56,135 nt of DNA, taken from positions 1-56,135 of IMG/VR virus record IMGVR_UViG_3300045988_130618. One strand, 5' to 3'. This document shows positions 1,584 through 34,580 of this stretch, piece after piece (the stretch's first letter is position 1; every line of letters starts with the position of its first letter). The stretch comes from a virus. The position numbers were made by a program, and so were the translations under genes. Under the pieces are notes generated by a model. That model ran no database searches and had not been told where the DNA came from. It worked only from the letters and a program-made list of their open reading frames with translations.

Positions 1584-2126
1584 TCAATCTATCATCTCCC
1601 ATTCTTTTATAGCCGATTTTATTACCCAACCTGTCCAGCTTATATCGTCTATCTGTTCCATAATGTGTTTCAATTTTTCTTTTGCTTCTTCCTCACTTTC
1701 TATTCTTATTAGACCTACTTTTTCACTACATTCTGGACCTATACCATATAATTTAGATACTGGATTAGTTAATGGTTTTCCACATACAAGGCATTTAGAA
1801 GTAGGTTCTGCTTTTCCTTGTAAATTCATATAATACATTCCTCTTGTTTCTTTTATAACTTCACCTTGCATAATACATAATGGCATTGGAACACTATTAT
1901 TCCACTTATCCTGAAAATCAAAAGTAGATGTCGCTGGTTCTGTCATATACTTTTTAACAGTGATTTTATATGACTTTCCTACTTCCATCTTATTTGATTT
2001 CATATGCTCTACAGCATACTTTACTCCACAATGTCTTGCCGGGAGGATAAACTCAAATGGTTTATCCTCTTCAAAATCTTGTTCTTTGTATCTATGTATT
2101 TGTTTGAATATTTCTTTCATAATCAT
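1584..2126 (-). CDS. Hypothetical protein with a DUF6011-like zinc-ribbon motif
   Basis: CLVCGKPLTNPVSKLYGIGPEC fits CxxCGxxLxxxxSxxxGxGxxC. Confidence 0.5.
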   Translation of the reverse strand: MIMKEIFKQIHRYKEQDFEEDKPFEFILPARHCGVKYAVEHMKSNKMEVGKSYKITVKKYMTEPATSTFDFQDKWNNSVPMPLCIMQGEVIKETRGMYYMNLQGKAEPTSKCLVCGKPLTNPVSKLYGIGPECSEKVGLIRIESEEEAKEKLKHIMEQIDDISWTGWVIKSAIKEWEMID

Positions 2127-6480: not shown

Positions 6481-6637
6481 TATTATTCTCCTTTCCATAA
6501 CTTTTAACAGCTTTCTTCAAATATTCAACAAAATCAAAATCCTTATAGCTCTTCAATTCTTCTTTTGTACATAAACTATTAATCATACAATGATTAGATT
6601 CTAATATTTGCATAGCCTTAGTTGCTCTTTTTGTCAT
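6473..6637 (-). CDS. Small hypothetical protein (54 aa, not in the ORF track)
   Basis: ATG at 6637 follows a GGAGGAAAT RBS, directly downstream of promoter P2. Translation starts MTKRATKAMQILESNHCMINSLC. Confidence 0.5.
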   Translation of the reverse strand: MTKRATKAMQILESNHCMINSLCTKEELKSYKDFDFVEYLKKAVKSYGKENNNE

Positions 6638-6676
6638 TTAATTTCCTCCTTGTTTGTTACCTCTTAACTTGATTAT

Positions 6677-6705
6677 ATTGTAATACATATATATAGAAAT
6701 GTCAA
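6677..6705 (-). promoter_or_regulatory. SigmaA-type promoter P2 (TTGACA-N17-TACAAT)
   Basis: Minus strand reads TTGACAtttctatatatatgtatTACAAT, followed by ATAATCAAGTTAAGAG. Confidence 0.75.
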
Positions 6706-6727
6706 GCATATTTTAAAAATTTATATA

Positions 6728-6763
6728 TAAAAAATACACCCTTATATTTCTATAAGGGTGTAT
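6728..6763 (-). terminator. Rho-independent terminator after the clamp gene
   Basis: atacaccctta / taagggtgtat gives an 11-bp stem with an 8-nt loop, then TTTTTT on the minus strand. Confidence 0.75.
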
Positions 6764-6828
6764 ATACATAATAGGAAAGTGGTGAAACAGTGATATCTTT
6801 CAATCCGTTTGCAATATAAAGTATATAC

Positions 6829-7926
6829 TTATTCAGTCATATTGTCAAGGTCTTCATCCTCAAGAAGTGCTATAACCTGTGTTACTTTTCCACTCTCAAT
6901 CTTTAAAGCATTTTCATTTCCATAGCAAATCTTAACAGTATCATCAGGATTAGCCTGCAACTGTTCCTTCAACATTGGAATATCTACACAACACATGAAT
7001 GGTTCAAAGTCCTTGCTTTCTACATAGTTGATAGTCTCTGTTGAAGCATCCTTTTTACTATGGATATTGATACCTTTTCTTCCAAATGTGAAATATGCTC
7101 CATTCTTATCGTATGGTTCTATGAAAAGTGCCAATCTATCAAGAGTTGCTAACAGTAAATCTTTTGGTACTTTACAAGATGATGTAAATGCTTCATCAAG
7201 ATAAGCTTTTATACTATCAACTGGGAAATTTTCAATTCCTTCCATTAATGCTCCATCAATCACAACATCTTCTGTCACAAACAGAATACTTGCTGAACCA
7301 ATGTAAACATTTATGTCTTCATTAGTATTCAAAGTTAATAACTGCATCTGTTGTGCAGAAACAAGAATCGGATTCTCATATTCAAACATCTTGAATCCAT
7401 TAAAGGTTATCACACATCCATCAGTTGTGATTACATTTGTATCATCACAATAATAACCTGTCAAAGCAGGTTCTTCTAATGTCTTCGCAAGAGCTGACTT
7501 ATTAATATTATAAGCCTGCATAACACTTGAGAGCTTGGTTGTACACTGTACATTTTTATCGTCCATAATCTTAATATCTGGAAAAGACACAAGACCTTCC
7601 TCATCAGAAATAAGTGGAATCTTATATGTTCCGTTAGCTTTAACAGATAATACATCATCAATAATTATTAATTCAATATCCTCGGAAGTTGTCTTGGCTA
7701 TTAACTTTCCGAACTTGTCAGCATCAACTGTGATATCCATGTCATCTCCAGCTACTTTGTCAATGATAATACATAATGTATTAGTCATATCTGTTGTAAG
7801 CAACCTTAACTTTCCATCTGATAATTTAATACCTAGCATGGATGTAATTGGGATAAGATTGTTAAATCCTGCTCCTTTGATTGCTTTGTTTACTGCTTCT
7901 TTCATCCTGCTTGTTACTACTTTCAT
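6829..7926 (-). CDS. DNA sliding clamp (DnaN/beta-clamp-like)
   Basis: 365 aa, typical beta-clamp length and three-domain-like periodicity. N-terminus MKVVTSRMKEAVNKAIKGAG..LIPITSMLGIKL. A clamp-loader set is encoded elsewhere in the genome. Confidence 0.6.
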   Translation of the reverse strand: MKVVTSRMKEAVNKAIKGAGFNNLIPITSMLGIKLSDGKLRLLTTDMTNTLCIIIDKVAGDDMDITVDADKFGKLIAKTTSEDIELIIIDDVLSVKANGTYKIPLISDEEGLVSFPDIKIMDDKNVQCTTKLSSVMQAYNINKSALAKTLEEPALTGYYCDDTNVITTDGCVITFNGFKMFEYENPILVSAQQMQLLTLNTNEDINVYIGSASILFVTEDVVIDGALMEGIENFPVDSIKAYLDEAFTSSCKVPKDLLLATLDRLALFIEPYDKNGAYFTFGRKGINIHSKKDASTETINYVESKDFEPFMCCVDIPMLKEQLQANPDDTVKICYGNENALKIESGKVTQVIALLEDEDLDNMTE

Positions 7927-7940: not shown

Positions 7941-8516
7941 TTATTGACTTAAACTCATTAACGAATAAGCTTCTTTTCTTAATTCTACATTATATTTAAA
8001 CTGACCTCTTATGGTAGCAGTTCTTGTCTTAGCACCTCTACTCTTGATACCTCTAGCCGTCATACAGCTATGTTCACCTTCTACAACTACTAACACATCT
8101 TCAGAACCTGTAGCTATCTGTATGATTTCAGCAATATCTGAACCTATCCTCTCCTGAAGCTGTAAACGCTTTCCAACCATATCTGCAATACGAGCAAATT
8201 TACTTAATCCTAATACTTTTCCATTAGGTATATATGCAATAGAAACTGTCATATTGTACATAAGCGCCATATGATGTTCACAATAACTGAAAATAGGTAT
8301 ATCCTGTACCACAACAAGGTCATCATTGTCTGTGTCAAAACATTTACAGAATTTTTCTGCTATTTCCTGATTTGTGTAATTCATTCCTTCAAATACTTCT
8401 TCATACATCTTAGCTACTCGCTTAGGTGTTTCTTTTAAGCCTTCTCTATATGGATTATCACCAAGAGCTTCTAATATTTCTCTAACTGCTTTTTCAATTT
8501 TTTCCTTATCAATCAT
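7941..8516 (-). CDS. folE: GTP cyclohydrolase I (FolE)
   Basis: [50 protein letters not shown] signatures; 191 aa. Confidence 0.9.
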
Positions 8517-8519
8517 TTT

Positions 8520-9155
8520 TTAAACTCCTCTCTTATTTGGATTCCATATAATCTTGTGTAACTGTACCTGTACACGGCAATTATTCATATGATGTTCCAA
8601 CATATAATTAACAATTTCTTCAGGTGTTATTTTTCCAAATACTGGACTAATAAACACTTGAGCTTTTGTTTCTGCAGACAACTTATAACAAACATCTAAA
8701 TCTTCTTTTGTACCAACAACGAACTTGATAACATCTGTAGGTCTTAAATAATCTATGTTATCTAATAACATCTTATCTTCCTGACCACTGGAAGGACACT
8801 TATAATCCATAGTGATGATAATATCAGAAAAAGTATAAGGTTCCACATTAATAGAACCATTTGTTTCTATATTGACTTCATATCCTTTATTTGTTAAATC
8901 CAATAAAAGTTCAAAAACACCTGGATGGATTAAGGGTTCTCCACCTGTGAGCGTTATTTTAGAACAACGAAATCCTTCTACCTTTTCTACAATTTCTTCA
9001 GCTGTCATTTCTGTATAATCGTTTCCTTCATACCCATAAGGTGTATCACAATATGAACATCTAAGGTTACATCCATATAAACGAATGAAGGTGGCAGGAA
9101 ATCCTGCCCTTATACCTTCTCCTTCTATGCTGTTAAATATTTCTACTACTTTCAT
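8520..9155 (-). CDS. queE: 7-carboxy-7-deazaguanine synthase (QueE, radical SAM)
   Basis: EIFNSIEGEG..FIRLYGCNLRCSYCDTPY is a QueE-type N-terminus with a CxxxCxxC cluster; 211 aa. Confidence 0.85.
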   Translation of the reverse strand: MKVVEIFNSIEGEGIRAGFPATFIRLYGCNLRCSYCDTPYGYEGNDYTEMTAEEIVEKVEGFRCSKITLTGGEPLIHPGVFELLLDLTNKGYEVNIETNGSINVEPYTFSDIIITMDYKCPSSGQEDKMLLDNIDYLRPTDVIKFVVGTKEDLDVCYKLSAETKAQVFISPVFGKITPEEIVNYMLEHHMNNCRVQVQLHKIIWNPNKRGV

Positions 9156-9521
9156 TTAATCCTCCTTGACACTAAATTCATATATAGCTATATTACCTTC
9201 GCTTTCCTGCACTTCAACCTTATAACAGTAGGTATCAATAGGACATATCTTATCAACCTCATCACATATCCATCTAGCTATATTCTCAGCCGTAGGATTA
9301 AAATCTACAACATCATTAATATACTTGTGGTCTAACTTATCCTGAACAAATTCTTTAATATGTTTAAAATCTACTAACATTCCATAATCTGTGAGCTTCT
9401 TGCCTTTGCAATGAACAGTTATTATCCAATTATGTCCATGTAAATTTGAACACTTACTGTCATAAGGTAACTTTAACTGATGGGCTCCTGCTATTTCCAT
9501 TCTTTTTGATACATAATACAT
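9156..9521 (-). CDS. queD: 6-carboxy-5,6,7,8-tetrahydropterin synthase (QueD)
   Basis: AGAHQL...KCSNLHGHNWIITV is the QueD/PTPS zinc-binding signature; 121 aa. Confidence 0.85.
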   Translation of the reverse strand: MYYVSKRMEIAGAHQLKLPYDSKCSNLHGHNWIITVHCKGKKLTDYGMLVDFKHIKEFVQDKLDHKYINDVVDFNPTAENIARWICDEVDKICPIDTYCYKVEVQESEGNIAIYEFSVKED

Positions 9522-9524
9522 AAA

Positions 9525-10115
9525 TTAATCCTCCTTCAAAGTATTTTTTGTTTGTAACATTAAACTTATTTTTTCAATAAAATCAATATCATAAGATATA
9601 TCAATTCTGGCTGGAAGATAATATTTATATCCGTCCTGATGAAAAAGTGTATTTGTTAAATCTAATCCTTCTAAAGATTTAAAATAACAAACAATCTTTT
9701 TCTTTTGTGGATATACTTCTGCTAAAGGCTTATTATTAGAATCCATTATTTTATAAGAATTATTAGACTCATAGAACTTAGCTTTTAATTCCTTAAGATA
9801 TGAACATAATTTTATAATTTCATTTTCGTGTGAAGAATTTTTCACTTTCTTAGTCTTAACAGATTTCTTATCATCCGTCTTTGCTGTTGTAATAATGTTA
9901 GGTTCAGTTACTTTCTCTACAGTAGATTCCTGAGGTATAATGGTCTGTTCTTCTTCTATTTTCTTCCACCATCTTTTCAACGTACTATGAGTGATAGAAA
10001 CTGTCTTACCTTTCTTTTCTCCATTAAGATATTCTACCATTACAGTATTTTCATTTGAATACTGTTCATCTACCTTAATTCTTGTTTCATTGTCCCTTCT
10101 TGATAAATAATACAT
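9525..10115 (-). CDS. Hypothetical Lys-rich protein embedded in the deazaguanine island
   Basis: 196-aa ORF immediately downstream of promoter P3; no enzymatic motif recognised. Confidence 0.6.
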   Translation of the reverse strand: MYYLSRRDNETRIKVDEQYSNENTVMVEYLNGEKKGKTVSITHSTLKRWWKKIEEEQTIIPQESTVEKVTEPNIITTAKTDDKKSVKTKKVKNSSHENEIIKLCSYLKELKAKFYESNNSYKIMDSNNKPLAEVYPQKKKIVCYFKSLEGLDLTNTLFHQDGYKYYLPARIDISYDIDFIEKISLMLQTKNTLKED

Positions 10116-10165
10116 AATATTAATCCTCCTTTTATTTTGTATATGTTATCTCTTAACTTGTTTAT

Positions 10166-10193
10166 ATTGTAACACATACAAGATAAAAGTCAA
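10166..10193 (-). promoter_or_regulatory. SigmaA-type promoter P3 (TTGACT-N16-TACAAT)
   Basis: Minus strand reads TTGACTtttatcttgtatgtgtTACAAT, followed by ATAAACAAGTTAAGAG. Confidence 0.65.
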
Positions 10194-10199
10194 CCCTTT

Positions 10200-11048
10200 T
10201 TAGAAAAGTTTTTTAGATTTTTTCTTAACTATGAATAATATTTCATCTGATTCCTTTGGATATGGAATGCTTACAATAGAACTTAACCAAGCACTAGGCA
10301 TATATAAAGACATTTTATTATAAAAATCTTTCATATCTTTTGAAACTTTATCACTAGAGAAAAATTCTTTCATTTTCTTTACTTTCATAACCAACCCAAC
10401 TTCATTGATTATTTCAAACCCAAGTTCATCAAGTTTTTCTTTTAATTCATCATAACCCCATTCATAAACGTGTGCGGCATATTGTGTTTCATAACCATTT
10501 CCAGGAGTATTTGGACAACTAAGAAACATAATAGAATCTTTATTCATAATTTTATGACACTCTATAAGACTTTGTGTTCCAACATCTTTATGCATATGTT
10601 CCAATGCAGATGTATAAATAACCAAATCAGCAAAACCTTTCTCTATATGATTAGACATTTCTGCTACATTTGAAAGTATCCAATCTGTCTTAAATGGATA
10701 ATATTCTTCTAAGTCTTCTTCCTTTAATACTTTTGCACTAGCACCTCTTTTAGCTTCTCTTATATTAGTTTCACAAATATCAACTCCTGTATAACTGTTA
10801 ATATTTTTAGCATAATATCTAAGAAGAGGTAATACCAAGGACCTACCACAACAAACATCTACAACATTCATATCTTTTTTTGCCATCAACGCAACTGCGT
10901 GGTGTTGAATATAATTCATAACATCCAAATTAGTAAAAAATCCATCTCTAAACTGAGTATAAAAATTTCTCATTTGATAAGTAGTACATAATACATCCTG
11001 AGGGTCCATACCTTCTTCAATTTTATGCACGATTTTCTTTTCTTCCAT
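10200..11048 (-). CDS. Class I SAM-dependent methyltransferase (small-molecule type)
   Basis: Motif I VVDVCCGRS, post-I YTGVDIC, DLVIYTSALEHM. No DPPY/NPPY or PCQ DNA-methyltransferase motifs seen. Confidence 0.7.
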   Translation of the reverse strand: MEEKKIVHKIEEGMDPQDVLCTTYQMRNFYTQFRDGFFTNLDVMNYIQHHAVALMAKKDMNVVDVCCGRSLVLPLLRYYAKNINSYTGVDICETNIREAKRGASAKVLKEEDLEEYYPFKTDWILSNVAEMSNHIEKGFADLVIYTSALEHMHKDVGTQSLIECHKIMNKDSIMFLSCPNTPGNGYETQYAAHVYEWGYDELKEKLDELGFEIINEVGLVMKVKKMKEFFSSDKVSKDMKDFYNKMSLYMPSAWLSSIVSIPYPKESDEILFIVKKKSKKLF

Positions 11049-11059
11049 TTTAAATCCTC

Positions 11060-11965
11060 CTAAAATAATTTTTTTCTATTGATACTGGAACCTTTATAAA
11101 CATAGTTATCTGCCCAATTTTTTAAATATATTAAGTTTGCTAACATTCTATATTTATAATCTGTTCTAACTAATTCTAACTCAATTCCAATACTTTGTAA
11201 ATACTTTTTTAATTGTTTTTCACCTAAATTATTAGATATATGATTTTTAAGATGTTGTTGTGAATCACTAACAGTTACTAATCCAAAAGGAGTTAATATA
11301 TTTCCATTAGCACCTATCATTATCCAACTTGTACTGTCTGCTGATGTAAATGGATATCTTTCCAATAATTTTAAAGACGTCATACCGAAAGCATGTGTTT
11401 TAACCTGTGGATTAGAACTTTTTTTAATTATAGTAAAACATTTATCAAACCAAATTTCTTTTTCTTTTGTTGAAGAATCAGTAGTTGCTGCTAAACCTAT
11501 ATATGGTATATGTTTTCCGTTAAAAGTTGTTTCTAACATTTGATGTAGATATTTCCAATCTTCCCTCCTATGAAAGATTGGTAATAATTTATCCGGACTC
11601 TTAACACGTTCCCTCATATAACAATAATTCTTCCAACTTAACTCTGGAGCTTCTAATATTTGTTCTTTTGTTTTAGGTTGTCCATAAATTCCAGGAATTT
11701 TATCAACTTGTGCAAATATGGTTAAATGTTCATCAATACTATTAATATATTCAATATATTCATTAACATCTAATTCAATATTTCGGGTATATACAGTATA
11801 AGCTCCTGAATCTATAAATAATTTTCCATGTACTTCCTCTTGACACCAACGAGAGATATTTTTACGGTCATTAACTTGTGACTGAAGTCTACATAAATTA
11901 TTTTTCAACATAAAAGATTCACAGTCTTCATTTTGTGTGCCAGCAAAATATAAATCAAAACTCAT
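11060..11965 (-). CDS. dpdA: DpdA-like (tRNA-guanine transglycosylase superfamily) DNA 7-deazaguanine transglycosylase candidate
   Basis: GKLFIDSGAYTVY motif typical of phage DpdA-type proteins. 301 aa. Sits next to folE/queD/queE and polA. Confidence 0.6.
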   Translation of the reverse strand: MSFDLYFAGTQNEDCESFMLKNNLCRLQSQVNDRKNISRWCQEEVHGKLFIDSGAYTVYTRNIELDVNEYIEYINSIDEHLTIFAQVDKIPGIYGQPKTKEQILEAPELSWKNYCYMRERVKSPDKLLPIFHRREDWKYLHQMLETTFNGKHIPYIGLAATTDSSTKEKEIWFDKCFTIIKKSSNPQVKTHAFGMTSLKLLERYPFTSADSTSWIMIGANGNILTPFGLVTVSDSQQHLKNHISNNLGEKQLKKYLQSIGIELELVRTDYKYRMLANLIYLKNWADNYVYKGSSINRKKLF

Positions 11966-14227
11966 TTATTCTACCTCAATACTTTCTCCGTACCAATTAT
12001 AAGAAACTTCACAATCACATTTAAAAGGTAATTCTATTAAATGTGATGGAGCCATCCTCATAAGATAGGATAATCTTTCTTTAACTTCTTTAGCGTTTTC
12101 TTTTGGACATTCCCCAATAACTTCATCATGAACACATATAAGTAAATGGAAATCAAGCTCTTTCATTCTTTCGTCATTATTAATGGAAATCATTGCTAAT
12201 TTTGCCATATCCGCGGCAGAACCTTGTACTCTCGCATTTACACATTGTCTTTCAGCTTGTGCTATAAATCCACCATTATCTTTAATCTTAATTCCTTGAG
12301 TTAAGGCACTTTGAATTATATCATTTTTCTTTTTCCATCCAAAAGCCTTTTGAAGTTGTTTGATGTAGTTGTCTTTCACTTTCTTAGGAACTTCTGTAGA
12401 TACCTCACTTCCAAATGCTAGTGGGTCAAAGTTAGTTACTTTTCCACTATAACTGAATTCATAAGGTTCTAACAACATATCTTTTAGATGTCTACGCCTT
12501 CCCCAAGCTGTTGTTACATAACCTTTAGTTCTTGCCATATTCTGTGAATCTTTAATAAACTGTGCTAATTCAGGAAAGGCTTTAAGAACAGCATCATATA
12601 TACCTTGTGCCTCTTTTGTAGATACTCCTAGTTGTTCACCTATAGAAGGAATCTGTCTTCCATATAAAATACCTAATACAATACTTTTAGCTTGTGTTCT
12701 TCTTTCCTTACCTGCCAAATTAACTGTTCCATCTGGTCTAAACTCTTTACATTCTTCATAAGGTTTATGAAAAGCTAAAGAAGCTATTGTGGCATATATA
12801 TCTTTACCATTCATAAAAGCTTCCTTCATTTTTCTATCTTTAGAAAGATGTGCTGTAACCATTGGCTCTTGCTGACTATAATCTCCACCTATAAGTACAT
12901 ACCCATCTTGAGCTTTAAACATCTGTCTAATCTCTTTGTTGTGTGAAGGGATATTCTGGAGATTCGGGTCTTGTGAACTGAATCTTCCTGTTTTTGCTCC
13001 ATACTGATTATAGCTTGCATGTACTCTTCCATCAGACAATGCAATTTCAGGCATTTTATCAATGTAAGTTCCTAACAGCTTATCAACATTTCTCATTCCC
13101 AAGATAGCCTCACAGATATTCTTTTCCTTGCCTTGTGCAAAATGTTTTAAAATATCTTCACCTGTTCCTCTAGGTGCTTTTTTATCCGGACTTTCCAATC
13201 CTAATATATCATAGAATAATATTGCAAGCTGAGTTGGGCTTGATAATGATATAGGGTCTGACAACTTATTATCCGGATGTTTCATCTTGTAATTATCAAT
13301 TTCATCCTTATACATTGCTATTGCTTCATCAGCCTGCTTTTGTCTTTCTTCTCTTAACTTATGATATTTTTCGTGTAAATTACTACATATATCAAAGTCA
13401 AGACATACACCTCTATCTTCCATATCTGCTACAACTGAAATCAAAGGCATTTCAATATTCCAAAATACATTATAAGGTCCAGCTAATACTCTTCTATTAA
13501 GAATTGTTTGTTGATATTTATACAATTCATAGGTCTTTATAGCATCACCTGCCGCATATAAATATCCTGTTGAGATTGGAATATTATCAAAAGTAACTCC
13601 TTTAAATAAACTATCAAATGTCAAAGATTCTGTATCTTTGCTATTACAGTATTTAAGATGCAAGTCTTTCAGTCTGTGACTTTCTTCTTCATCTATACAA
13701 TATGCCGCTAACATTGTATCCCAATAAGGCTTGAAATCAATTCCAAGTGTCTTTCTACATACACGTATATCATACTTTGCATTATGAAAAATCCATCTAA
13801 TATCCTTATGAAACTCTTTCATAATCTTTGAAACAGTTTCTTCGTTCATCTGTTCCTTTGTTCTTGCACCTGTGATATATGATTTATGATTGATTGGAAT
13901 ATATGCCGCTTTCTGTCCTGGAGTATAAATACATCCACCAACTATATCTACAAGTAATGGATTTAATGCATTTGTTTCTGTATCTAATGCACCCTCCCCA
14001 ACTTGCTTCATCTCTTTCATATATTCATATAACTGGTCAGGTTCTCTAATAAGAATATAATCATCTTTATGTATTGCTAATTTCTGATTGGCAATAGCAA
14101 CTATAGATTGTATTTGAGCGGCTAGATTATTTCCGCCGCCCCTAATACTTGTTCTTGTTGTTATTGTTTTGGATTTTTTGATTATATTCTTATCATTGCT
14201 TTTTGGTCTTGCAAATGATAATGCCAT
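11966..14227 (-). CDS. polA: Family A DNA polymerase (Pol I-like) with a 3'-5' exonuclease domain
   Basis: Exo I ALDTETNAL; motif A GGDYSQQEP; motif B RRTQAKSIVLGILYG; motif C CVHDEV; 753 aa. Confidence 0.95.
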   Translation of the reverse strand: MALSFARPKSNDKNIIKKSKTITTRTSIRGGGNNLAAQIQSIVAIANQKLAIHKDDYILIREPDQLYEYMKEMKQVGEGALDTETNALNPLLVDIVGGCIYTPGQKAAYIPINHKSYITGARTKEQMNEETVSKIMKEFHKDIRWIFHNAKYDIRVCRKTLGIDFKPYWDTMLAAYCIDEEESHRLKDLHLKYCNSKDTESLTFDSLFKGVTFDNIPISTGYLYAAGDAIKTYELYKYQQTILNRRVLAGPYNVFWNIEMPLISVVADMEDRGVCLDFDICSNLHEKYHKLREERQKQADEAIAMYKDEIDNYKMKHPDNKLSDPISLSSPTQLAILFYDILGLESPDKKAPRGTGEDILKHFAQGKEKNICEAILGMRNVDKLLGTYIDKMPEIALSDGRVHASYNQYGAKTGRFSSQDPNLQNIPSHNKEIRQMFKAQDGYVLIGGDYSQQEPMVTAHLSKDRKMKEAFMNGKDIYATIASLAFHKPYEECKEFRPDGTVNLAGKERRTQAKSIVLGILYGRQIPSIGEQLGVSTKEAQGIYDAVLKAFPELAQFIKDSQNMARTKGYVTTAWGRRRHLKDMLLEPYEFSYSGKVTNFDPLAFGSEVSTEVPKKVKDNYIKQLQKAFGWKKKNDIIQSALTQGIKIKDNGGFIAQAERQCVNARVQGSAADMAKLAMISINNDERMKELDFHLLICVHDEVIGECPKENAKEVKERLSYLMRMAPSHLIELPFKCDCEVSYNWYGESIEVE

Positions 14228-15291: not shown

Positions 15292-15360
15292 CTGGAGTAG
15301 TAGGAATCGAACCTACACCTTGTCAGCTGGTCACGCACTCGCCATCTATACTATACTCCA
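15292..15360 (-). tRNA. tRNA-like gene with a non-canonical anticodon arm; identity undetermined
   Basis: Perfect 7-bp acceptor TGGAGTA/TACTCCA; T-arm GTAGG-TTCGATT-CCTAC; D-loop with GG. The anticodon region pairs only as ACC/GGT around a 9-nt loop AGCTGACAA. Confidence 0.45.
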
Positions 15361-15521
15361 AGTATTTAACAGTATTCCCAGCTTTATTCCTGTCACTATC
15401 CCAATCACCGCATTTTGCTATATCAGGTGCTTTACTTCTTTTTGACTGCCAGGATAGAAATTTAATTAAGGATGAAAACCTAACAAAATCATTCTATTTT
15501 ACCATTCGGGGAAATGGTAAA

Positions 15522-15593
15522 CAGCCCTTGTTGGATTCGAACCAACGAATGCAGGAATCAAAATCCTGTGCCTTACCACTTGGTGAAAAGGCT
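15522..15593 (-). tRNA. tRNA-Gln (anticodon UUG)
   Basis: Acceptor AGCCTTT/AAGGGCT; anticodon stem CAGGA/TCCTG with loop TTTTGAT; T-arm GTTGG-TTCGAAT-CCAAC. Very similar to bacterial tRNA-Gln. No CCA is encoded. Confidence 0.9.
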
Positions 15594-15650
15594 ATAATAT
15601 ATCAATACTACATTCACCTCAACCTACCTCAATTCCTCGTATTGATATAT

Positions 15651-15945: not shown

Positions 15946-17949
15946 TCAAAAAATTATTTTGCATCTTAGAAATTCTTCTTGCAAGTCATTTATATCCCGA
16001 TTATCTGAGTATACAAGTTCTTTTATTATCTTTCCGTGTACATTCTTTCTAAATCTTTCTGTTGCTTTTCTTCCTGCTTCATCAGGGTCAAATGCAAGAA
16101 TATATTCACGAACTGGTAACTTATTTAATATTTCATACTGCTTTTTATTTCCTGTTCCTATCATAGCCATAGCAGGCTTATTATATTTCCAGCAGGTCAA
16201 ACAATTTAAGAATGATTCAGTGATATAAGCCGTTCTATACATTCCAGTAACGAATCTATATCCTTGATATATTGGTTTATCTTCTCCTCTTGGCAATCTG
16301 AAAAACTTGTTTTTAACACTTCGGCTTGCAATAAATCTAACTGTACCATACAAATCTGCAACTGGGAATGTAATCTCATCTCTTGCTTTGTCATATCCTA
16401 TATCAAACCTTTCTATAATTTCATCAGTCAATCCTCTTTCATACATATAAGGATGTATATACCTATATTTGTCTAATTCTTCTTCTGTAATAACTGTTTT
16501 ATCTCCTTCTTCCAAGTCACTTTTCTTTTCATATTCATTTCCTTGTCCAGCTTTTCCCATTTCTCCGGATTTTCCTTTTGATGCTGTTTCAATGCCTTTA
16601 CAAATTCCTCTGGATAAATTGATTTTCCTTGCATTAAATCCCTCCATTATATTTGGTCTTGTTTCAATTTCAACAGTATTAAATCTTTTTATAAGCCATC
16701 TTTTTCCAAATTTTCCTTCATCTTGATATCCATATAATTCGGATATCATTTCCTCTATTGTACCCGCCCAGCCACAAGCAAAGCAATTTCCTGTTAAAAT
16801 ATAACCGTCAAGTGCGAATGAATGTGTGGATGTTTGACAGCAATACACATCTTCATATCTGTCTGTATATTCAACAGAAACTACTTTATGTCTTAATCTC
16901 CCATCATAGGATGATTTATTTTTAATTCCTTTAGCAGTTATAAAAAATGATTGTGGAACATTATTTTTAACGATTCGTAAAGTATATGCATTAGTATCAT
17001 TTTTTACAACCAAACATCCTCTGTTGCCTGCTTTAATATTAGAAGTTCCAATATTAAAAGTTGCTATGCCCAAGTGAACAAAAATATCTCTTATCTTTAA
17101 AATATCTTCTTTTTTTGCAGAATATAAGGATAAACCTCCATTACTTTCATTTCCATCGGCTACAAAATAACCAGCTAAAAAACCCAATAAGTATTCATCG
17201 GTTTCTATATTCATGTCTGGAACTTTTTTTAAATTTCTATATGAACTAAAACATATAGAATCATATTCTATTCCATTTCCTGCTATTGATTTTTTAATAT
17301 TACCTAAATGCTCAAAATATTTAGATATTCCTAAATCTGATTTATTATAAAAGAAACATCTATATTGATACTTTCTATGATGACCAGTCATACAACCATC
17401 ACCATAACAAAATCCGTGTACAATCCCATCTATAGAGGGAATTAGTTCTTCATTTACTTTTGGTAAAATTTTATCTAAATACATCCAATTTTTTAAATCT
17501 TTTGTTTGTATTTTGTTTTTGCGATTTTTCACAATCCACTCATGTTCTGGAGTTGTATAGATTATACGTTCTTTTTCATTTGCAGTTAGTGTAAGTTTCA
17601 TCAGTCGTTGTTTTCCGTAGTTTCTAAATATTACGGTTTCCCAATTACCATTTCCATTTATAATATCAACAGCCTTGTCACACAAACTGGATATTGATTT
17701 TACCCCACTTCTAGTAATGACTTTTGTGTCTGCCTGAAAACAGTGACATTTATCAATTTCTCCATTTACACCAAAAGACGGCTTTCGTTCTTGTCCATTC
17801 TTGTGAAAAGGACAATTCGTCTGCACATTTTCTCCGTTGTTTCTGAAAATATGAAATCTATCTACCCCGTGTTGTGCAAGGTCAAATTTAAGCATATCTA
17901 AGACAGATTGGGTATCAGATTGTATAATTGTATCTTGTAGCTTTATCAA
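15946..17949 (-). CDS. dnaG: DnaG-type DNA primase (zinc finger + TOPRIM) interrupted by an intein; TTG start
   Basis: CPFHKNGQERKPSFGVN...KCH[intein]CFACGWAG zinc finger. C-terminal TOPRIM (AYITESFLNCL...AFDPDEAGRKA). GAGGAGG RBS lies 8 nt before the TTG. Confidence 0.85.
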   Translation of the reverse strand: MIKLQDTIIQSDTQSVLDMLKFDLAQHGVDRFHIFRNNGENVQTNCPFHKNGQERKPSFGVNGEIDKCHCFQADTKVITRSGVKSISSLCDKAVDIINGNGNWETVIFRNYGKQRLMKLTLTANEKERIIYTTPEHEWIVKNRKNKIQTKDLKNWMYLDKILPKVNEELIPSIDGIVHGFCYGDGCMTGHHRKYQYRCFFYNKSDLGISKYFEHLGNIKKSIAGNGIEYDSICFSSYRNLKKVPDMNIETDEYLLGFLAGYFVADGNESNGGLSLYSAKKEDILKIRDIFVHLGIATFNIGTSNIKAGNRGCLVVKNDTNAYTLRIVKNNVPQSFFITAKGIKNKSSYDGRLRHKVVSVEYTDRYEDVYCCQTSTHSFALDGYILTGNCFACGWAGTIEEMISELYGYQDEGKFGKRWLIKRFNTVEIETRPNIMEGFNARKINLSRGICKGIETASKGKSGEMGKAGQGNEYEKKSDLEEGDKTVITEEELDKYRYIHPYMYERGLTDEIIERFDIGYDKARDEITFPVADLYGTVRFIASRSVKNKFFRLPRGEDKPIYQGYRFVTGMYRTAYITESFLNCLTCWKYNKPAMAMIGTGNKKQYEILNKLPVREYILAFDPDEAGRKATERFRKNVHGKIIKELVYSDNRDINDLQEEFLRCKIIF
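16786..17742 (-). mobile_element. Intein (319 aa) with a double-motif LAGLIDADG homing endonuclease, inserted in the primase zinc finger
   Basis: Block A CFQADTKVITRSG; block B TTPEHEW; LAGLIDADG motifs IVHGFCYGDGC and LLGFLAGYFVADGN; C-terminus HSFALDGYILTGN followed by +1 Cys. The exteins rejoin to KCH-CFACGWAG. Confidence 0.8.
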
Positions 17950-25590: not shown

Positions 25591-25801
25591 TATTATCAAC
25601 TCCTAACTTTTTAAGAATTAAGTCAATTTTTTCATCCTGCTCTTTTAAGTGAGAATGAATATCATTTACTGCTATATCCAACATTTTTCCTGCTGTGTCC
25701 TGTGTAAAATTCAAATCAAGATTCTTAAGACCTATATAGAAAGAAATGATATTCAATATATCCATTATAGAAAACTGTTCATCCTCACTAAAATTTAACA
25801 T
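25577..25801 (-). CDS. Hypothetical protein
   Basis: 74-aa ORF overlapping its neighbours by a few nt. Confidence 0.5.
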   Translation of the reverse strand: MLNFSEDEQFSIMDILNIISFYIGLKNLDLNFTQDTAGKMLDIAVNDIHSHLKEQDEKIDLILKKLGVDNNEIK

Positions 25802-26205
25802 ATCTTAGTCACCACAACATCTACATCACCTGTCCAAGCTACTTCGGTATTAACAAACTGTAAGATTGTTGGAGAATCACAGCATTTACAAGAATTATTA
25901 TCTGTCACCTGTACAAGTGTAGATATAGGAACATTTACAGATGTTGCAACTGTTGCACCTGTTATAGTTCTTGTAGCTTGTGGCTGTGTTACTCCGTTTT
26001 TAGTCATACTAACTGTGATATTTCCTGCCGCAGTAGCAAGTGCAGTTGCATTAAATAATACTTCATATACACCACATTTATTAAGCTGAATTGTATTTGT
26101 TCCAGTGAGTTCAGCTGTGCATCCCTTTTTTAATGTAACACTATTAAAAGGGATAACTCCTGAAGTTGCAGGAATTGTTTGATTTTTTGAATATGCTTCT
26201 AACAT
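25795..26205 (-). CDS. BclA C-terminal-domain-like (C1q/TNF-like jelly roll) protein with no collagen-like region
   Basis: VIPFNSVTLKKGCTAELTGTNTIQLNKCGVYEVLFNATALATAAGNITVSMTKNGV parallels Bacillus BclA-CTD PVPFNTVGSQFGTAISQLDADTFVISETGFYKITVIANTATASVLGGLTIQVNGV. Confidence 0.55.
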   Translation of the reverse strand: MLEAYSKNQTIPATSGVIPFNSVTLKKGCTAELTGTNTIQLNKCGVYEVLFNATALATAAGNITVSMTKNGVTQPQATRTITGATVATSVNVPISTLVQVTDNNSCKCCDSPTILQFVNTEVAWTGDVDVVVTKIC

Positions 26206-26225
26206 TGTTTATTCTCCTTTCATTT

Positions 26226-26251
26226 AAAAAGGGTGCTATATTAGCACCCTT
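26226..26251 (-). terminator. Rho-independent terminator inside the accessory island
   Basis: aagggtgcta / tagcaccctt gives a 10-bp stem with a 3-nt loop and a T-run on the minus strand. Confidence 0.75.
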
Positions 26252-26292
26252 TGATTGACATACTAATATGCTCTATTTTTAATTATTCACTT

Positions 26293-26916
26293 TTATACGT
26301 TCGCACATGTACAGCCACATCCGTTAGTGAATATTGGACTATATCCTGCTGTGTATGTTGTTGCATTAGGATATCTAACTACACCACACATAGCTGATTG
26401 AAGCTGTAACTGATTAACCTGTGACTGAAGGCTCTCAATCTTATTCTGCTGAATAGCATCAAGAACTTTCTGTGTCTGAGCTGTTGTATTAGCATTAATA
26501 GCGGCAGTATTGATAGCACCATTGTAATTAACACCATCAATAGCTCTCTGTGTTGTGCAACAACAATCAGCAATCTGATTCTGAGTAGTACCAAAGTTAC
26601 GAAGAGTTTCATAACCTAAATTACAGATTCCGTTCTGTAATCCCTGATAGTTGTGCTGAGCATTATCATTCAGCCTGCCAACTGCATTCTCAAGATTGTT
26701 GAAGTTCATAGCATTACAAAGTCCTGCTTCTGTAACTGGCTCACCATTCATTATAGGACCTCTGTTACCTGCACCGAAGAAACCTCCTCCTCCAATAAGT
26801 AAAAGAATAAGTAAAGCGAAAATCCACATTCCGCCTCCACCTGCACCACCAAACATTCCACCATCATTTTTATCTGTAACGGCGGCAATGTCTGCTAAAG
26901 ATACTCCTGTGTCCAT
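26293..26916 (-). CDS. Membrane protein: YjcZ-like Gly-rich TM N-terminus, Cys-rich and coiled-coil C-terminal part
   Basis: GGMFGGAGGGGMWIFALLILLLIGGGGFFGAG resembles the tiny YjcZ-family sporulation TM proteins. It also has CCCTTQ, a QQNKIESLQSQVNQLQLQ coil, and ends GCGCTCANV. Confidence 0.4.
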   Translation of the reverse strand: MDTGVSLADIAAVTDKNDGGMFGGAGGGGMWIFALLILLLIGGGGFFGAGNRGPIMNGEPVTEAGLCNAMNFNNLENAVGRLNDNAQHNYQGLQNGICNLGYETLRNFGTTQNQIADCCCTTQRAIDGVNYNGAINTAAINANTTAQTQKVLDAIQQNKIESLQSQVNQLQLQSAMCGVVRYPNATTYTAGYSPIFTNGCGCTCANV

Positions 26917-26962
26917 AACTGTATCTCCTTTCTAAAAAATATTTATTATGAAAAGCATTAAG

Positions 26963-27226
26963 CTATTTCATCATACCTAAAATTTGATTAGGGTCAATTC
27001 CCATTTGTGAACATTTTTGATAGAATACATCTTTAGGATTCTGACCACTACACATATTGAAAACTTCTTGTAGTTGAGGATTATTTTTAGCCATATTCAT
27101 TAGAGCTTGTTCTGGATTATTAGCTATTTTTAGCATATTTTTCATTTGTGCTATTCTGTTTAATATTGGATTGTTTAACCCTTGCTGTGTCAAGGTCTGC
27201 TGATTGTTGAATAGACTGCTTGCCAT
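26963..27226 (-). CDS. Hypothetical helical protein
   Basis: Strong RBS AAAGGAGGAATTATTAAATG at 27226; 87 aa. Confidence 0.6.
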   Translation of the reverse strand: MASSLFNNQQTLTQQGLNNPILNRIAQMKNMLKIANNPEQALMNMAKNNPQLQEVFNMCSGQNPKDVFYQKCSQMGIDPNQILGMMK

Positions 27227-27605
27227 TTAATAATTCCTCCTTTAACTGATTGAACTCATCTCTTGTCACATAATCAATATTCTGTGAAGTTTGAGATTGT
27301 GTAGTTATTTCACTAAAAGAAAATGCCCTTATAGTAGGAAATCCTGCTCCGTCAGTAGTTTTGATATACATAACATCTTCATTATTATCAAAAAGTGCTA
27401 CTGTACTATTAGCAGGCATTTGATAAGCCTTTGCACCTTCTAATCCAGTGACTCTTGTTAATGTTGTAGGTTGCATATTATAATTGGAACCTACATTATT
27501 AGAATTATTTATTGTGTTTAGATAATTCATATACGGATTGTAATTCATCATTGGATTGTTCATTCCTTGATACATCTTTCTTGCCTTCCCTTCTAATAAA
27601 TTCAT
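27120..27605 (-). CDS. N/Y/M/Q-rich hypothetical protein; the start may be the ATG at 27575
   Basis: MNNPMMNYNPYMNYLNTINNSNN low-complexity head, then a folded-looking core VALFDNNEDVMYIKTTDGAGFPTIRAFSF. The 3' end overlaps the next ORF by 107 nt. Confidence 0.5.
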   Translation of the reverse strand: MNLLEGKARKMYQGMNNPMMNYNPYMNYLNTINNSNNVGSNYNMQPTTLTRVTGLEGAKAYQMPANSTVALFDNNEDVMYIKTTDGAGFPTIRAFSFSEITTQSQTSQNIDYVTRDEFNQLKEELLNGKQSIQQSADLDTARVKQSNIKQNSTNEKYAKNS

Positions 27606-27815
27606 TAAGATATAAGTGATATTGTACTAATGATATAGGGTCAAGTGTCATTGGATTTATCATCATATTTCTCCTCTATTTCTAATAAAACCATAAATAT
27701 TCTACATATGTGGAGTATAGATATACCTTGTAGTTTAGGACTATTTATAAGTTCATCTAAAATAACTCTAGCATTTTTCATATCTTATACTCCTTTCTTA
27801 TAGTTTAATTGTAAA

Positions 27816-27853
27816 TAAAAAAGAACACACTCACAATGTAGTGAATGTGTTCT
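27816..27853 (-). terminator. Rho-independent terminator after the region-4 HTH gene
   Basis: Minus-strand AGAACACATTCAC-tacatt-GTGAGTGTGTTCT (13 bp, one G-U pair), followed by TTTTTTATTT. Confidence 0.75.
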
Positions 27854-27873
27854 AAATGTGTTATGATATATTT

Positions 27874-28074
27874 TTATAAGACTTTAATTATTTTCTTATT
27901 TACTCTCTGGCTTAGCTTTCTAGCATAATCACTTGATATATTAAGTTCCTCTGCAATATGTTCTAAAGTTTCACCTTTAGCACGTTGTTCAAAGATAGGG
28001 ATTTCTAAATTAACAAAATTACATTGTTCTCTTAAATAATCAAGTTCTTTCTTGGTGAAATTAGATATCGTCAT
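27874..28074 (-). CDS. Sigma-70 region-4-like HTH protein; late transcription regulator candidate
   Basis: GETLEHIAEELNISSDYARKLSQRVNKKI resembles a region 4.2 HTH; 66 aa. Confidence 0.45.
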   Translation of the reverse strand: MTISNFTKKELDYLREQCNFVNLEIPIFEQRAKGETLEHIAEELNISSDYARKLSQRVNKKIIKVL

Positions 28075-28075
28075 A

Positions 28076-28165
28076 TTAACTTCTCCGCTTACGAGGTTTT
28101 TTATCCTTGCTTCCCTTAGGACGTCCTCTTCTTTTAATTGTTGTTACTTTAATTGTTGCCGCCAT
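28076..28165 (-). CDS. Possible 29-aa AT-hook-like micro-ORF (low confidence)
   Basis: MAATIKVTTIKRRGRPKGSKDKKPRKRRS contains the RGRP core. The RBS is weak. Its stop lies 1 nt before the next ATG. Confidence 0.25.
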   Translation of the reverse strand: MAATIKVTTIKRRGRPKGSKDKKPRKRRS

Positions 28166-28379
28166 TGTCTATACTTCCATTTCCACCAATATAATTAGCA
28201 TTACTGCCATCATCACTTGTTACTTCTGTAACTGTCTGTTCTGTTGGTAAACACCAAGCATATAGCCATATGGCATTGGAAGCAAATAACAAAATCAAAG
28301 TGATGATAAATAATATAAAATATCTTTTGCCAGTTCTTTTGACTTCATGTAGAAGTTCAAGTGCTAAGTTATCTTCCAT
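28149..28379 (-). CDS. Single-TM lysis-cassette protein
   Basis: KRYFILFIITLILLFASNAIWLYAW TM segment; 76 aa. Confidence 0.5.
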   Translation of the reverse strand: MEDNLALELLHEVKRTGKRYFILFIITLILLFASNAIWLYAWCLPTEQTVTEVTSDDGSNANYIGGNGSIDNGGNN

Positions 28380-28653
28380 TATGATTATCCTCCTCTAAAT
28401 CACTGATACGATGATTAGCAACATCCTGCCTTTCTTGCATAACAGAAATAGCTTTTTCTGCTTCATACATCCTTTCTACAACATTATTATGCTTTTTAAC
28501 ACTAGCATCTAAAGTGGATATGTCTTTTTTAATCAAGGCTATTTCTGTTCTAACTTCACTGATAGTTAAATCATGCTGTTTTCTTGATGTGTAAATGACA
28601 CCAATCAACGCAAGTCCTCCTGTTATGATTGAACATATAATAGATGAGAACAT
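28369..28653 (-). CDS. N-terminal TM + coiled-coil lysis-cassette protein
   Basis: MFSSIICSIITGGLALIGVIY TM segment, then a coiled coil. Start set at the ATG at 28653. Confidence 0.5.
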   Translation of the reverse strand: MFSSIICSIITGGLALIGVIYTSRKQHDLTISEVRTEIALIKKDISTLDASVKKHNNVVERMYEAEKAISVMQERQDVANHRISDLEEDNHNGR

Positions 28654-28657
28654 AGAC

Positions 28658-28921
28658 CTAACCTTTCTTAAAATTCTTAATAAAATTCTTATACAGTTCA
28701 TATAGACCTGTACTAGCTAATCCACTTGTTATTCCAATCGCTATAACATCTGGGGTAAATGTATGACTTATCCAAGCACTTAATACAATACCTAGTACTC
28801 CGACAACTAATGGAATATAGTCATTAATCTTATCTGTCTTGATGACAGATTTAAGAATAAAGCCTACACCTAAACATATAGCTAAGATAACAAGGTTAAT
28901 ATAGTTATTTAAAAATTCCAT
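28658..28921 (-). CDS. Holin
   Basis: 87 aa with 2-3 predicted TM helices and a charged C-terminus (KNFIKNFKKG). Lies close downstream of the endolysin gene, separated from it by one small ORF. Confidence 0.6.
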   Translation of the reverse strand: MEFLNNYINLVILAICLGVGFILKSVIKTDKINDYIPLVVGVLGIVLSAWISHTFTPDVIAIGITSGLASTGLYELYKNFIKNFKKG

Positions 28922-28933
28922 ATATCCTCCTTT

Positions 28934-29101
28934 CTAAATAACTTCCAGAATATTCAATTTATAAGTTCCTACATATTTTCCATCAAGATAGAGTTTAGCT
29001 GTTTCTTTATATACTTCGCCAACATCATATATATAATTAGTTTCAGGTAATCTGACTTGACTACCTGAAACTATCTGTTCATATGCGTTACCTGTTTTCA
29101 T
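28934..29101 (-). CDS. Small hypothetical protein (55 aa, not in the ORF track)
   Basis: ATG at 29101 directly follows the endolysin stop (TAAATG). Translation starts MKTGNAYEQIVSGSQVRLPETNYIYDVGEVYKE. Confidence 0.45.
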   Translation of the reverse strand: MKTGNAYEQIVSGSQVRLPETNYIYDVGEVYKETAKLYLDGKYVGTYKLNILEVI

Positions 29102-30007: not shown

Positions 30008-30038
30008 TCCTAATCCTCCTTTCTTTAATGATATTTAC

Positions 30039-30067
30039 ATTATAATACAGTTTACATTTTTTGTAAA
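30039..30067 (-). promoter_or_regulatory. SigmaA-type promoter P9 upstream of the lysis cassette (TTTACA-N17-TATAAT)
   Basis: Minus strand reads TTTACAaaaaatgtaaactgtatTATAAT. Confidence 0.6.
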
Positions 30068-30087
30068 CTATTTGTACACTTTTATTT

Positions 30088-34573: not shown

Positions 34574-34580
34574 ACTAACC

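Follow-up and report, generated by a model that had tools for sequence, protein, structure and literature searches.

A QueC-less DpdA module with a DpdA-linked class I methyltransferase in a 56-kb phage genome, and its possible product, a methylated 7-deazaguanine in DNA

The window analyzed here is the whole of IMG/VR virus record IMGVR_UViG_3300045988_130618, a gut-phage DNA of 56,135 nucleotides, and the subject is the gene island at positions 7941-11965, which encodes a partial 7-deazaguanine pathway, a class I S-adenosylmethionine (SAM)-dependent methyltransferase and a DpdA-type DNA guanine transglycosylase. The module is of a known DpdA type, and is set apart by the loss of QueC in a setting that has no DpdL and by a new DpdA-linked family of class I methyltransferases; its product is most likely a methylated base derived from 7-carboxy-7-deazaguanine (CDG). 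Listed below are the six open reading frames (ORFs) of the island and the two genes that bound it.

6829-7926, minus strand: sliding clamp (DnaN-like), downstream boundary of the island; weak match to PF00712 (E = 8e-4)
7941-8516, minus strand: FolE (GTP cyclohydrolase I), 191 aa; PF01227, E = 8e-66
8520-9155, minus strand: QueE (7-carboxy-7-deazaguanine synthase, clostridial type), 211 aa; TIGR03963, 269.9 bits against a cutoff of 260.1
9156-9521, minus strand: QueD (6-carboxytetrahydropterin synthase), 121 aa; TIGR03367, 93.3 bits against a cutoff of 89.25
9525-10115, minus strand: orphan ORF196, 196 aa; two-domain protein, no family match
10200-11048, minus strand: class I SAM-dependent methyltransferase, 282 aa; above the Pfam cutoffs for Methyltransf_23 and Methyltransf_11
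11060-11965, minus strand: DpdA (DpdA1-type DNA guanine transglycosylase), 301 aa; PHROG 887 and homology to the enzymes of phages Dp-1 and 9g
11966-14227, minus strand: DNA polymerase I (PolA; 3'-5' exonuclease and polymerase A domains), upstream boundary of the island; PF00476, E = 1e-88, and PF01612, E = 8e-22

The six ORFs sit where an earlier note on this DNA, made from the letters alone, had placed them, and the identities that it had proposed for FolE, QueE, QueD, the methyltransferase and the tRNA-guanine transglycosylase (TGT)/DpdA ORF were borne out by profile searches of Pfam, NCBIfam and PHROG; its placement of the island between polA and the sliding clamp gene was likewise upheld by the PolA and DnaN flanks. 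FolE additionally scored 193.9 bits against TIGR00063 (cutoff 181.6) and exceeded the cutoff of NF006826; QueE contains a Radical_SAM domain (E = 3e-17) with the CNLRCSYC cluster (CxxxCxxC); and QueD matched PF01242 (E = 6e-32) and carries the CxxxHGH motif (CSNLHGH), not the LxxxHRHxF motif of DpdL. It follows from this curated family membership that FolE, QueD and QueE would together give CDG. The clamp was identified by its homologues, which are annotated as DnaN at the equivalent position in phages Dp-1, MS1 and Flasso. The minus-strand array runs unbroken from PolA through the 301-, 282-, 196-, 121-, 211- and 191-aa ORFs to the clamp; PolA abuts the start of DpdA with zero gap, and the intergenic gaps are 0-14 nt, except for 84 nt between the methyltransferase and the 196-aa ORF. 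Megablast of the island against deposited phages gave no match, its relatives being recognizable at the protein level only.

Bases 1-52 of the window are identical to bases 56084-56135, a terminal direct repeat of 52 nt, which shows that the genome is complete and closed, with a length of 56,083 bp. This size matches that of Dp-1 (56,506 bp) and of the 55-58 kb contigs that carry near-identical methyltransferases. QueC (PF06508) was searched for in all six frames with a hidden Markov model (HMM) built from seven sequences, three from cultured and four from metagenomic relatives, and run with --max so that no filters applied; the best match in the complete genome had E = 0.63. As a control, a leave-one-out QueC HMM detected the QueC of a sister contig (L011) at E = 3.7e-72. 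Nothing below E = 1 was found by tblastn of three QueC proteins against the genome, and there was no SGGxDS motif. Profiles of QueF, QueT, Vut_1, the DpdC-like proteins and the QueF-L-like proteins had no match in the genome either. The 6-pyruvoyl-tetrahydropterin synthase (PTPS) HMM matched QueD only (E = 1e-49; next match E = 0.3), so that no DpdL was found, and the sole LxxxHRH match in the genome sits in an antisense frame of 52 aa. The Pfam census, which took in every ORF of 90 aa or longer, showed no DUF3109 protein (DpdM), no formyltransferase (DpdN, which acts on dPreQ1), no amidotransferase and no second methyltransferase. The claim that the 56 kb hold no QueC, and no QueF, ArcS or Gat-QueC, therefore stands for a complete genome, and because QueC is absent from it, the phage-encoded pathway stops at CDG.

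The 301-aa ORF matched PHROG 887, 'queuine tRNA-ribosyltransferase', with E = 1.4e-52. In tblastn comparisons, it was 50% identical to its homologue in Bacillus phage Flasso, 45% identical to DpdA of Streptococcus phage Dp-1 over 100% of the protein (E = 5e-82) and, for the characterised enzyme of phage 9g, 33% identical over 77% of the protein (E = 3e-25). The PHROG match and the Dp-1 and 9g homologies place the 11060-11965 ORF in the TGT/DpdA family, as had been proposed. Two aspartates, D52 (FIDSGAY) and D210 (SADSTSW), are invariant in an alignment of eight DpdA sequences that share 22-50% identity; they lie in the DSG(A/G) and (A/V)DS motifs, and we take them to be the TGT catalytic residues. 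There was no match to the Pfam TGT model PF01702, and sequence and profile searches of the PDB gave noise only. It is to be noted that tandem pairs of DpdA paralogues occur in several methyltransferase loci (L015:11512-13276, L098:183-1628 and L100:1842-3361); the two paralogues in L015 share 43% identity.

The 282-aa protein scored 34.4 bits against Methyltransf_23 (PF13489; cutoff 27) and 29.1 bits against Methyltransf_11 (PF08241; cutoff 21.2). Its AlphaFold2 (AF2) model, with a pLDDT of 80.4, has the alternating strands and helices of a Rossmann-type class I fold, and in Foldseek many class I methyltransferases, of the small-molecule and mRNA-cap kinds, matched it at a probability of 1.0 and a TM score of ~0.5; among these matches there was no specific functional match and no canonical DNA methyltransferase. 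The mRNA cap guanine-N7 methyltransferase family (PF03291) scored 24.0 bits, below its Pfam cutoff of 26.6, and the match to PDB entry 1ri1 (E = 0.005; Foldseek rank 22, TM 0.54) spans residues 42-102, which is the SAM-binding region. A set of 5.8 billion proteins contained 683 homologues, of which the best 120 were all at least 63% identical and unnamed, and an exhaustive HMMER scan of 1.84e9 (1.84 billion) representatives returned 252 at E<=1e-3. None of the 50,697 deposited phage genomes has a member of the family, the best tblastn match there having 23% identity; a match in Stenotrophomonas phage AXL3 was discarded, since it is surrounded by thymidylate genes and not by deazaguanine genes. 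Nonetheless, the family is common in human-gut viromes and has a member on the complete chromosome of a Faecalibacterium prausnitzii strain. In 59 distinct sequences drawn from all genomic contexts, that of the studied phage included, 60 positions are invariant, and the signature motifs TTYQMR, NxIQH, DxCCGR, YTSxxEHM, CPNT..G and Y.AHxYEW are all present in the phage's enzyme. Judged by these searches, it is a small, discrete and sharply conserved family inside a huge superfamily. No paper describing a class I methyltransferase in DpdA clusters was found in a literature search. The enzyme represents a previously undescribed, DpdA-linked class I family, distinct from DpdM, DpdL and DpdN. In one metagenomic protein, P0160 (690 aa), a long linker joins a ParB_N domain to a methyltransferase of the family, a natural fusion which hints that the methyltransferase acts on DNA. 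Of two further fusions, P0138 has 230 N-terminal residues without a family match and is not informative, and P0121, in which the methyltransferase is joined to a DUF3383 phage structural domain, was rejected as probably an artefact of gene calling or assembly.

The gene neighbourhoods of the family were surveyed in 98 loci with the methyltransferase, which were gathered from IMG/VR, assemblies and GTDB genomes, scored with HMMs and numbered here with the prefix L. DpdA adjoins the methyltransferase (within ~1.5 kb) in 94 of the 98; the loci that lack a DpdA neighbour are either truncated or carry a divergent, TGT-like protein of 362 aa. Across the loci, the neighbouring DpdAs are 22-96% identical, and the methyltransferase is 63-98% identical. 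The phage under study belongs to a group of 11 loci with QueD, QueE and FolE only (context a), in which the backbone is either PolA/Dp-1-like or, in L076, L081 and L082, ParB-type. Eight loci of four lineages have QueC together with a DUF6884-like protein (context b); one of these, L091, has the order PolA-DpdA-DpdC-like-MTase-QueC-QueD-QueE-FolE-DnaN (MTase, methyltransferase), syntenic with the studied phage. A QueT or Vut_1 transporter and a protein of ~103 aa characterize 66 loci (context c), including L092. One locus (L103) combines a DpdC-like protein with Vut_1, eight have a transporter only, with no recognisable nitrile converter, and four are fragments on truncated contigs. The loci with a preQ transporter number ~75 in all, and usually have a QueF-L-like T-fold protein. 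These results establish the methyltransferase as a conserved companion of DpdA that is independent of the deazaguanine source, and the QueC-less configuration as a recurrent one. Because the DpdA-MTase-QueD-QueE-FolE set without QueC is found in 11 loci, at least five lineages and two backbones, it reflects selection and not the loss of a gene by chance.

The distribution of accessory genes bears on what the methyltransferase would act upon. The methyltransferase occurs with QueC always in the company of a DUF6884/DpdC-like protein (8 of 8 loci), and a candidate nitrile converter, either DpdC-like or QueF-L-like, is present in 75 of the 83 loci with a preQ0-type source and in 0 of the 11 CDG-only loci. 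No true QueF lies next to the methyltransferase in any surveyed locus. Bacterial DpdC, a protein of the DUF6884 family, is required for the conversion of dPreQ0 to dADG (10.1101/2025.02.24.639861; Pfam description). The phage DpdC-like proteins fall just below the Pfam DUF6884 cutoff (28.3 and 24.7 bits against 30), and keep CS(K/R)TK and LSDxYG as counterparts of the DUF6884 motifs CxxxK and LSAxxG. In the conserved ~103-aa protein, found at L025:10833-11144 and in 65 other loci, a PDY motif and the Cys of a CxIG motif are invariant; the protein had no Pfam or NCBIfam match, and its profile gave weak matches to T-fold proteins, namely dihydroneopterin aldolase (E = 8.5e-5) and QueF-L archaeosine synthase (E = 0.09), the QueF-L alignment covering the region of the catalytic Cys. 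A 136-aa ORF that follows the methyltransferase in transporter-type loci was considered as a QueF; BLAST, Pfam and NCBIfam searches were empty, the profile gave these T-fold matches only, and no more than the weak label 'QueF-L-like' was kept. Two simpler rules were tried and dropped. That the methyltransferase replaces QueC, suggested by comparison of L011 with the studied phage, is contradicted by the coexistence of both in L012, L015, L018 and L091; that the DpdC-like protein is an obligate partner of the methyltransferase is ruled out by L101 and L102.

The cluster L092 lies at ~2,343,273-2,364,088 of NZ_CP186691.1, the chromosome of F. prausnitzii strain 2, in the order ParB-like - DpdA - methyltransferase - QueF-L-like - QueT, presumably within a prophage, and clusters nearly identical to it make up most of the IMG/VR matches. 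In transporter-type loci generally, a separate ParB-like gene precedes dpdA, which is reminiscent of the DpdA/DpdB pairing in bacteria.

Comparison with the closest relatives places the island in a common frame. The IMG/VR contigs L004-L010 and L017, whose methyltransferases are 68-98% identical to that of the phage, share the order PolA-DpdA-MTase-(ORF196)-QueD-QueE-FolE-DnaN and have no QueC. The sister contig L011 (PolA 90%, Cas4 94% and QueD 93% identical) has PolA-DpdA-ORF196-QueC-QueD-QueE-FolE-DnaN and no methyltransferase. PolA also stands upstream of the island in Flasso, L004-L011, L091 and L101-L104. Identity to L004 is mosaic, being 98% for the methyltransferase, 96% for DpdA, 87% for FolE, 76% for QueD, 57% for QueE and 54% for ORF196, with PolA at 91%; this pattern indicates that cassettes recombine inside the island. 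In Dp-1 and MS1, the order is QueC-QueD-QueE-FolE-transporter-DpdA, followed by DnaN, a Cas4-like nuclease, RecA and clamp-loader genes; in Flasso, it is PolA ... QueC-QueD-QueE-FolE-QueF ... DpdA ... DnaN-Cas4; and the studied phage keeps the same frame of PolA, island, DnaN, Cas4-like nuclease and RecA. Judged by gene order, the replisome-side location is an ancestral layout common to Dp-1, MS1 and Flasso. The description of the island as welded to the replisome genes thus holds for its position between PolA and DnaN, but this position is not special, since Dp-1, MS1 and Flasso are alike in it.

ORF196, which the earlier note had counted as part of the modification island, could not be tied to the pathway. 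It had no Pfam, NCBIfam or PHROG match and 33 homologues only, all unnamed, and it evolves fast, with 30-54% identity where PolA has ~90%. Its model shows an N-terminal beta domain, a disordered linker (residues 56-93) and a C-terminal alpha+beta domain, for which Foldseek found no significant structural neighbour (best E = 0.12). Since ORF196 occurs both with the methyltransferase and without it, as in the QueC-bearing L011, and is missing from the QueC-less L009, L010 and L017, it is probably a bystander and not a pathway enzyme.

Among known systems, the nearest are the phages Dp-1 and MS1, which share with the studied phage a homologous DpdA (45% and 39% identity, respectively), FolE, QueD, QueE, a genome of ~56 kb and the same site. 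They differ in having QueC, a QueF-type reductase (Dp-1) and a QueT or Vut_1 transporter, none of which is found in the studied phage, whereas the methyltransferase and ORF196 are present in the latter and no methyltransferase is found in Dp-1 or MS1. Dp-1 DNA carries dPreQ1 at ~1.7% of G (Hutinet et al. 2019, PMC6884629). The only described QueC-less deazaguanine class is that of Cellulophaga phage phiST, in which FolE, QueD and QueE act with DpdA3 and DpdL to yield dDG (Cui et al. 2023, PMC10516641). The studied phage resembles it in having a pathway that ends at CDG together with a DpdA; however, phiST has DpdL, a QueD paralogue with the LxxxHRHxF motif and a proposed CDG decarboxylase, and DpdA3, whereas here there is a single QueD, a DpdA1-type enzyme and a methyltransferase. 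The claim that the gene combination falls outside the described pathways is therefore correct for the methyltransferase, which occurs in none of them, but not for the QueC-less set of DpdA, FolE, QueD and QueE, which is known with DpdL (PMC10516641). A methyltransferase in a phage deazaguanine cluster also has a precedent in DpdM, the dPreQ1 N-methyltransferase that forms mdPreQ1 in Cellulophaga phage phiSM and Vibrio phage VH7D (PMC10516641); its target is the C7 substituent of a base already inserted in DNA. DpdM, however, has a DUF3109/YkgJ-like metal-binding fold and needs preQ1, and hence QueF; the enzyme studied here is a Rossmann class I protein in a phage with no QueF or DUF3109 protein. 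With respect to bacterial DpdC, the relatives L091, L018, L015, L012 and L103 pair the methyltransferase with a DUF6884-like protein and DpdA, in which the DpdC-like activity is a prediction from sequence, whereas the studied phage has no DUF6884 protein.

Class I enzymes that methyl-esterify a carboxylate on a tRNA base are known, namely CmoM (cmo5U to mcmo5U) and Trm9/ALKBH8 (cm5U to mcm5U). HuiC O-methylates preQ0 in huimycin (10.64898/2026.04.15.718813). Like these, the phage enzyme is a SAM-dependent class I protein (Methyltransf_11-type), and their acceptors are a modified nucleobase carboxylate or a 7-deazaguanine; however, they act on tRNA or on a free metabolite and not on DNA, and no specific similarity to the phage enzyme was seen in sequence or structure. 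Regarding the use of CDG itself by a DpdA, the DpdA2 of VH7D inserts dCDG in E. coli delta-queC, ~40-fold less efficiently than preQ1 in the wild type (PMC10516641 Table 2), and dCDG occurs naturally at a low level in the Sulfolobus virus STSV-2 (PMC10516641).

Taken together, these findings are best accommodated by a Dp-1-type module that would replace some guanines of the phage DNA with a 7-deazaguanine derivative. In the proposed pathway, FolE, QueD and QueE would convert GTP to CDG, and DpdA would exchange guanine in double-stranded DNA for a CDG-derived base. A methyl group would then be added to the deazaguanine by the methyltransferase; the likeliest stage is after the base has entered the DNA, and the likeliest site is the C7 substituent at the carboxyl level. 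The product here would be the methyl ester of dCDG (7-methoxycarbonyl-7-deazaguanine), in which the ester neutralises the carboxylate, and the modified DNA would resist host restriction, as is the case with other deazaguanines. Because nitrile converters accompany the preQ0-type sources and not the CDG-only ones, we infer that the common substrate of the family is a C7 substituent at the carboxyl, amide or amidine level, and not a nitrile; in context (a), this level would be reached directly from CDG, and QueC and DpdC could then be dispensed with together. Action of the methyltransferase on DNA is favoured by the ParB_N fusion and by a gene spacing to dpdA that is tight or overlapping. The suggestion that the phage installs a CDG-derived base gains support, since QueC and the DpdC-like protein are lost together in every FolE/QueD/QueE locus that has the methyltransferase. 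The companion suggestion, that the methyltransferase tailors CDG, survives as one of several readings, as the enzyme is not specific to CDG and is also found with QueC plus DpdC-like proteins or with transporters only. We assign a probability of roughly 0.4 to the full explanation, in which a CDG-derived base is inserted by DpdA and then methylated. Its parts differ in strength: the phage DNA very probably carries a 7-deazaguanine, and the methyltransferase probably belongs to the deazaguanine pathway; insertion of a CDG-derived base with no QueC step is slightly favoured; a methylated deazaguanine not yet described falls just short of an even chance; and the methyl ester in particular is a doubtful guess. 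By the same token, it is a tentative proposal that gut phages, including the F. prausnitzii prophage, carry an undescribed methylated 7-deazaguanine, which in the present phage would plausibly be the CDG methyl ester, made by a route that bypasses QueC and preQ0.

Several observations weigh against this explanation. Sequence and structure searches of the methyltransferase gave generic class I matches, from which neither the type of methylation (O-, N- or C-) nor the acceptor atom could be read. The carboxyl-level model fails in the eight methyltransferase loci that consist of DpdA and a transporter with no nitrile converter. Moreover, three different C7 groups (acid, amide and amidine) would have to be served by one near-invariant enzyme, only one position of which separates the context (a) members from those of context (b), and this would fit methylation of a shared ring position better. 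DpdC-like genes occur without the methyltransferase in L101 and L102, indicating independent modules, and the methyltransferase slot of L101 suggests that alternative tailoring enzymes can occupy it, which may address the ring and not the C7 group. As the DpdA of the QueC-less L007 is 57% identical to that of the QueC-bearing L011, a single subclade serves both, and no DpdA lineage is dedicated to CDG. Finally, the host may supply QueC, as the earlier note had also suggested. As to the L101 slot itself, this Dp-1-like relative has at 6500-7033 (plus strand), after the DpdC-like gene, a 177-aa deaminase of the cytidine deaminase (CDA) fold (HAEINAI...PCPMC). The first ~20 residues of the deaminase (MAKVGDIIDGKKVMLKIEEGE) match the N-terminal leader of the methyltransferase family members P0086 and P0069, and the arrangement looks like an in-frame cassette swap.

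Completion of the pathway by the host is the alternative with the most to say for it, although we hold it to be less likely than not. Here, the phage FolE, QueD and QueE would merely boost CDG, host QueC and possibly QueF would carry it to preQ0 or preQ1, and the base would be inserted by DpdA and then methylated; in a variant, the methyltransferase would be a non-homologous analogue of DpdM, forming mdPreQ1, or would methylate a ring position. The CW_7 domain of the phage lysin indicates a Gram-positive host, and many Gram-positive bacteria have queCDEF. The methyltransferase is also found with only QueT or Vut_1 transporters, where the base necessarily comes from outside the phage, and Dp-1, with dPreQ1 in its DNA, has a DpdA 45% identical to the present one. 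Many phages encode only a part of the deazaguanine pathway (PMC6884629). On the other hand, the QueC-less loci also lack the DpdC-like partner, which would not be expected if preQ0 were still inserted, and three of the four genes have been kept in at least five lineages, which points to CDG as the end product intended. The lack of a true QueF beside the methyltransferase in every surveyed locus also speaks against host completion, and the DpdC-like protein of the QueC-bearing loci would consume dPreQ0, making preQ1 unlikely as the common substrate. Methylation of the ring or of another position, regardless of the C7 group, is improbable in our estimate: DpdA would insert whichever 7-deazaguanine is available, here CDG, and N2, N1, C8 or a neighbouring base would be methylated. 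This would agree with a single near-invariant enzyme in all contexts, including the minimal loci of DpdA, methyltransferase and transporter, with the CDA-fold deaminase in L101, as such enzymes act on ring amino groups, and with the weak similarity to guanine-binding cap methyltransferases. That similarity, however, is below the Pfam cutoff and concerns mainly the SAM-binding region, and the pairing of QueC with DpdC-like proteins, together with the nitrile converters in 75 of the 83 preQ0-source loci, would go unexplained.

More improbable still is that the methyltransferase has nothing to do with deazaguanine, being perhaps a protein of anti-defence, a methyltransferase for RNA or small molecules or a member of the fold that transfers no methyl group, and that the island installs plain dCDG. 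The class I fold is indeed generic, with members such as SpnF that are not methyltransferases, and dCDG does exist at a low level in STSV-2 (PMC10516641); nonetheless, in phages that differ widely and in a prophage, the enzyme adjoins DpdA (94 of 98 loci), and its family is small, discrete and not found in other contexts. Lastly, a role of the island in host tRNA queuosine or preQ pools, and not in phage DNA, might be read from older annotations such as 'queuosine biosynthesis' and 'tRNA-ribosyltransferase', yet it is highly improbable: the homologous systems of 9g and Dp-1 modify DNA, and the 9g DpdA fails to complement tgt (PMC6884629), while the only clear phage tRNA, tRNA-Gln(UUG), is no queuosine target.

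Eight 7-deazaguanine bases are known in DNA, and each new one came with a new enzyme and a new means of evading restriction. The gene neighbourhoods described here predict a ninth, methylated deazaguanine base, as well as a DpdA1-type enzyme able to use a CDG-derived substrate, and they predict that one substrate can be reached in alternative ways, by QueC with DpdC, by a QueF-L-like protein or by using CDG directly. If true, this would extend natural DNA chemistry and add an enzyme for site-specific DNA derivatisation, and it would bear on the sequencing and restriction-based analysis of abundant gut phages. If, instead, host QueC completes the pathway, the island would be a routine partial pathway, with the function of the methyltransferase still to be assigned. 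The F. prausnitzii cluster offers a cultivable system in which the base can be identified.

Regulatory signals in and around the island were sparse. No preQ1 riboswitch was found by Rfam scan of the 56-kb genome and four representative loci. Two elements were picked up by pattern scan, of which the hairpin is the likely point where the transcription unit ends; in this region, promoter-like matches were not enriched over shuffled sequences (53 against 43.6 +/- 7).

6734-6763, minus strand: terminator-like hairpin (13-bp stem and T run) after DnaN; pattern scan only
10166-10193, minus strand: promoter-like site (TTGACT-16-TG-TACAAT), weak, in the 84 nt that separate the methyltransferase from ORF196

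Elsewhere in the genome, the 667-aa DnaG-type primase at 15946-17949 (minus strand) has a CHC2 zinc ribbon (residues 35-73) and a Toprim domain (575-656), between which lie an Intein_splicing match (107-384, below the cutoff) and LAGLIDADG_3; an intein that carries a homing endonuclease is probably present. Near RecA, in the replication and recombination module, the gene at 1584-2126 (minus strand) specifies a product of 180 aa in which a DUF6011 domain was recognized (E = 3.5e-11). The tRNA-Gln(UUG) gene is at 15521-15594 (minus strand), and a weaker tRNA-like match at 15292-15360 (minus strand) scored 40.5 bits with Rfam and was not seen by ARAGORN. Among the ORFs at 25795-42112 (minus strand), one has a BclA_C-like domain, and the lysin has Glucosaminidase and CW_7 repeat domains, a combination that suggests a Gram-positive (Bacillota) host.

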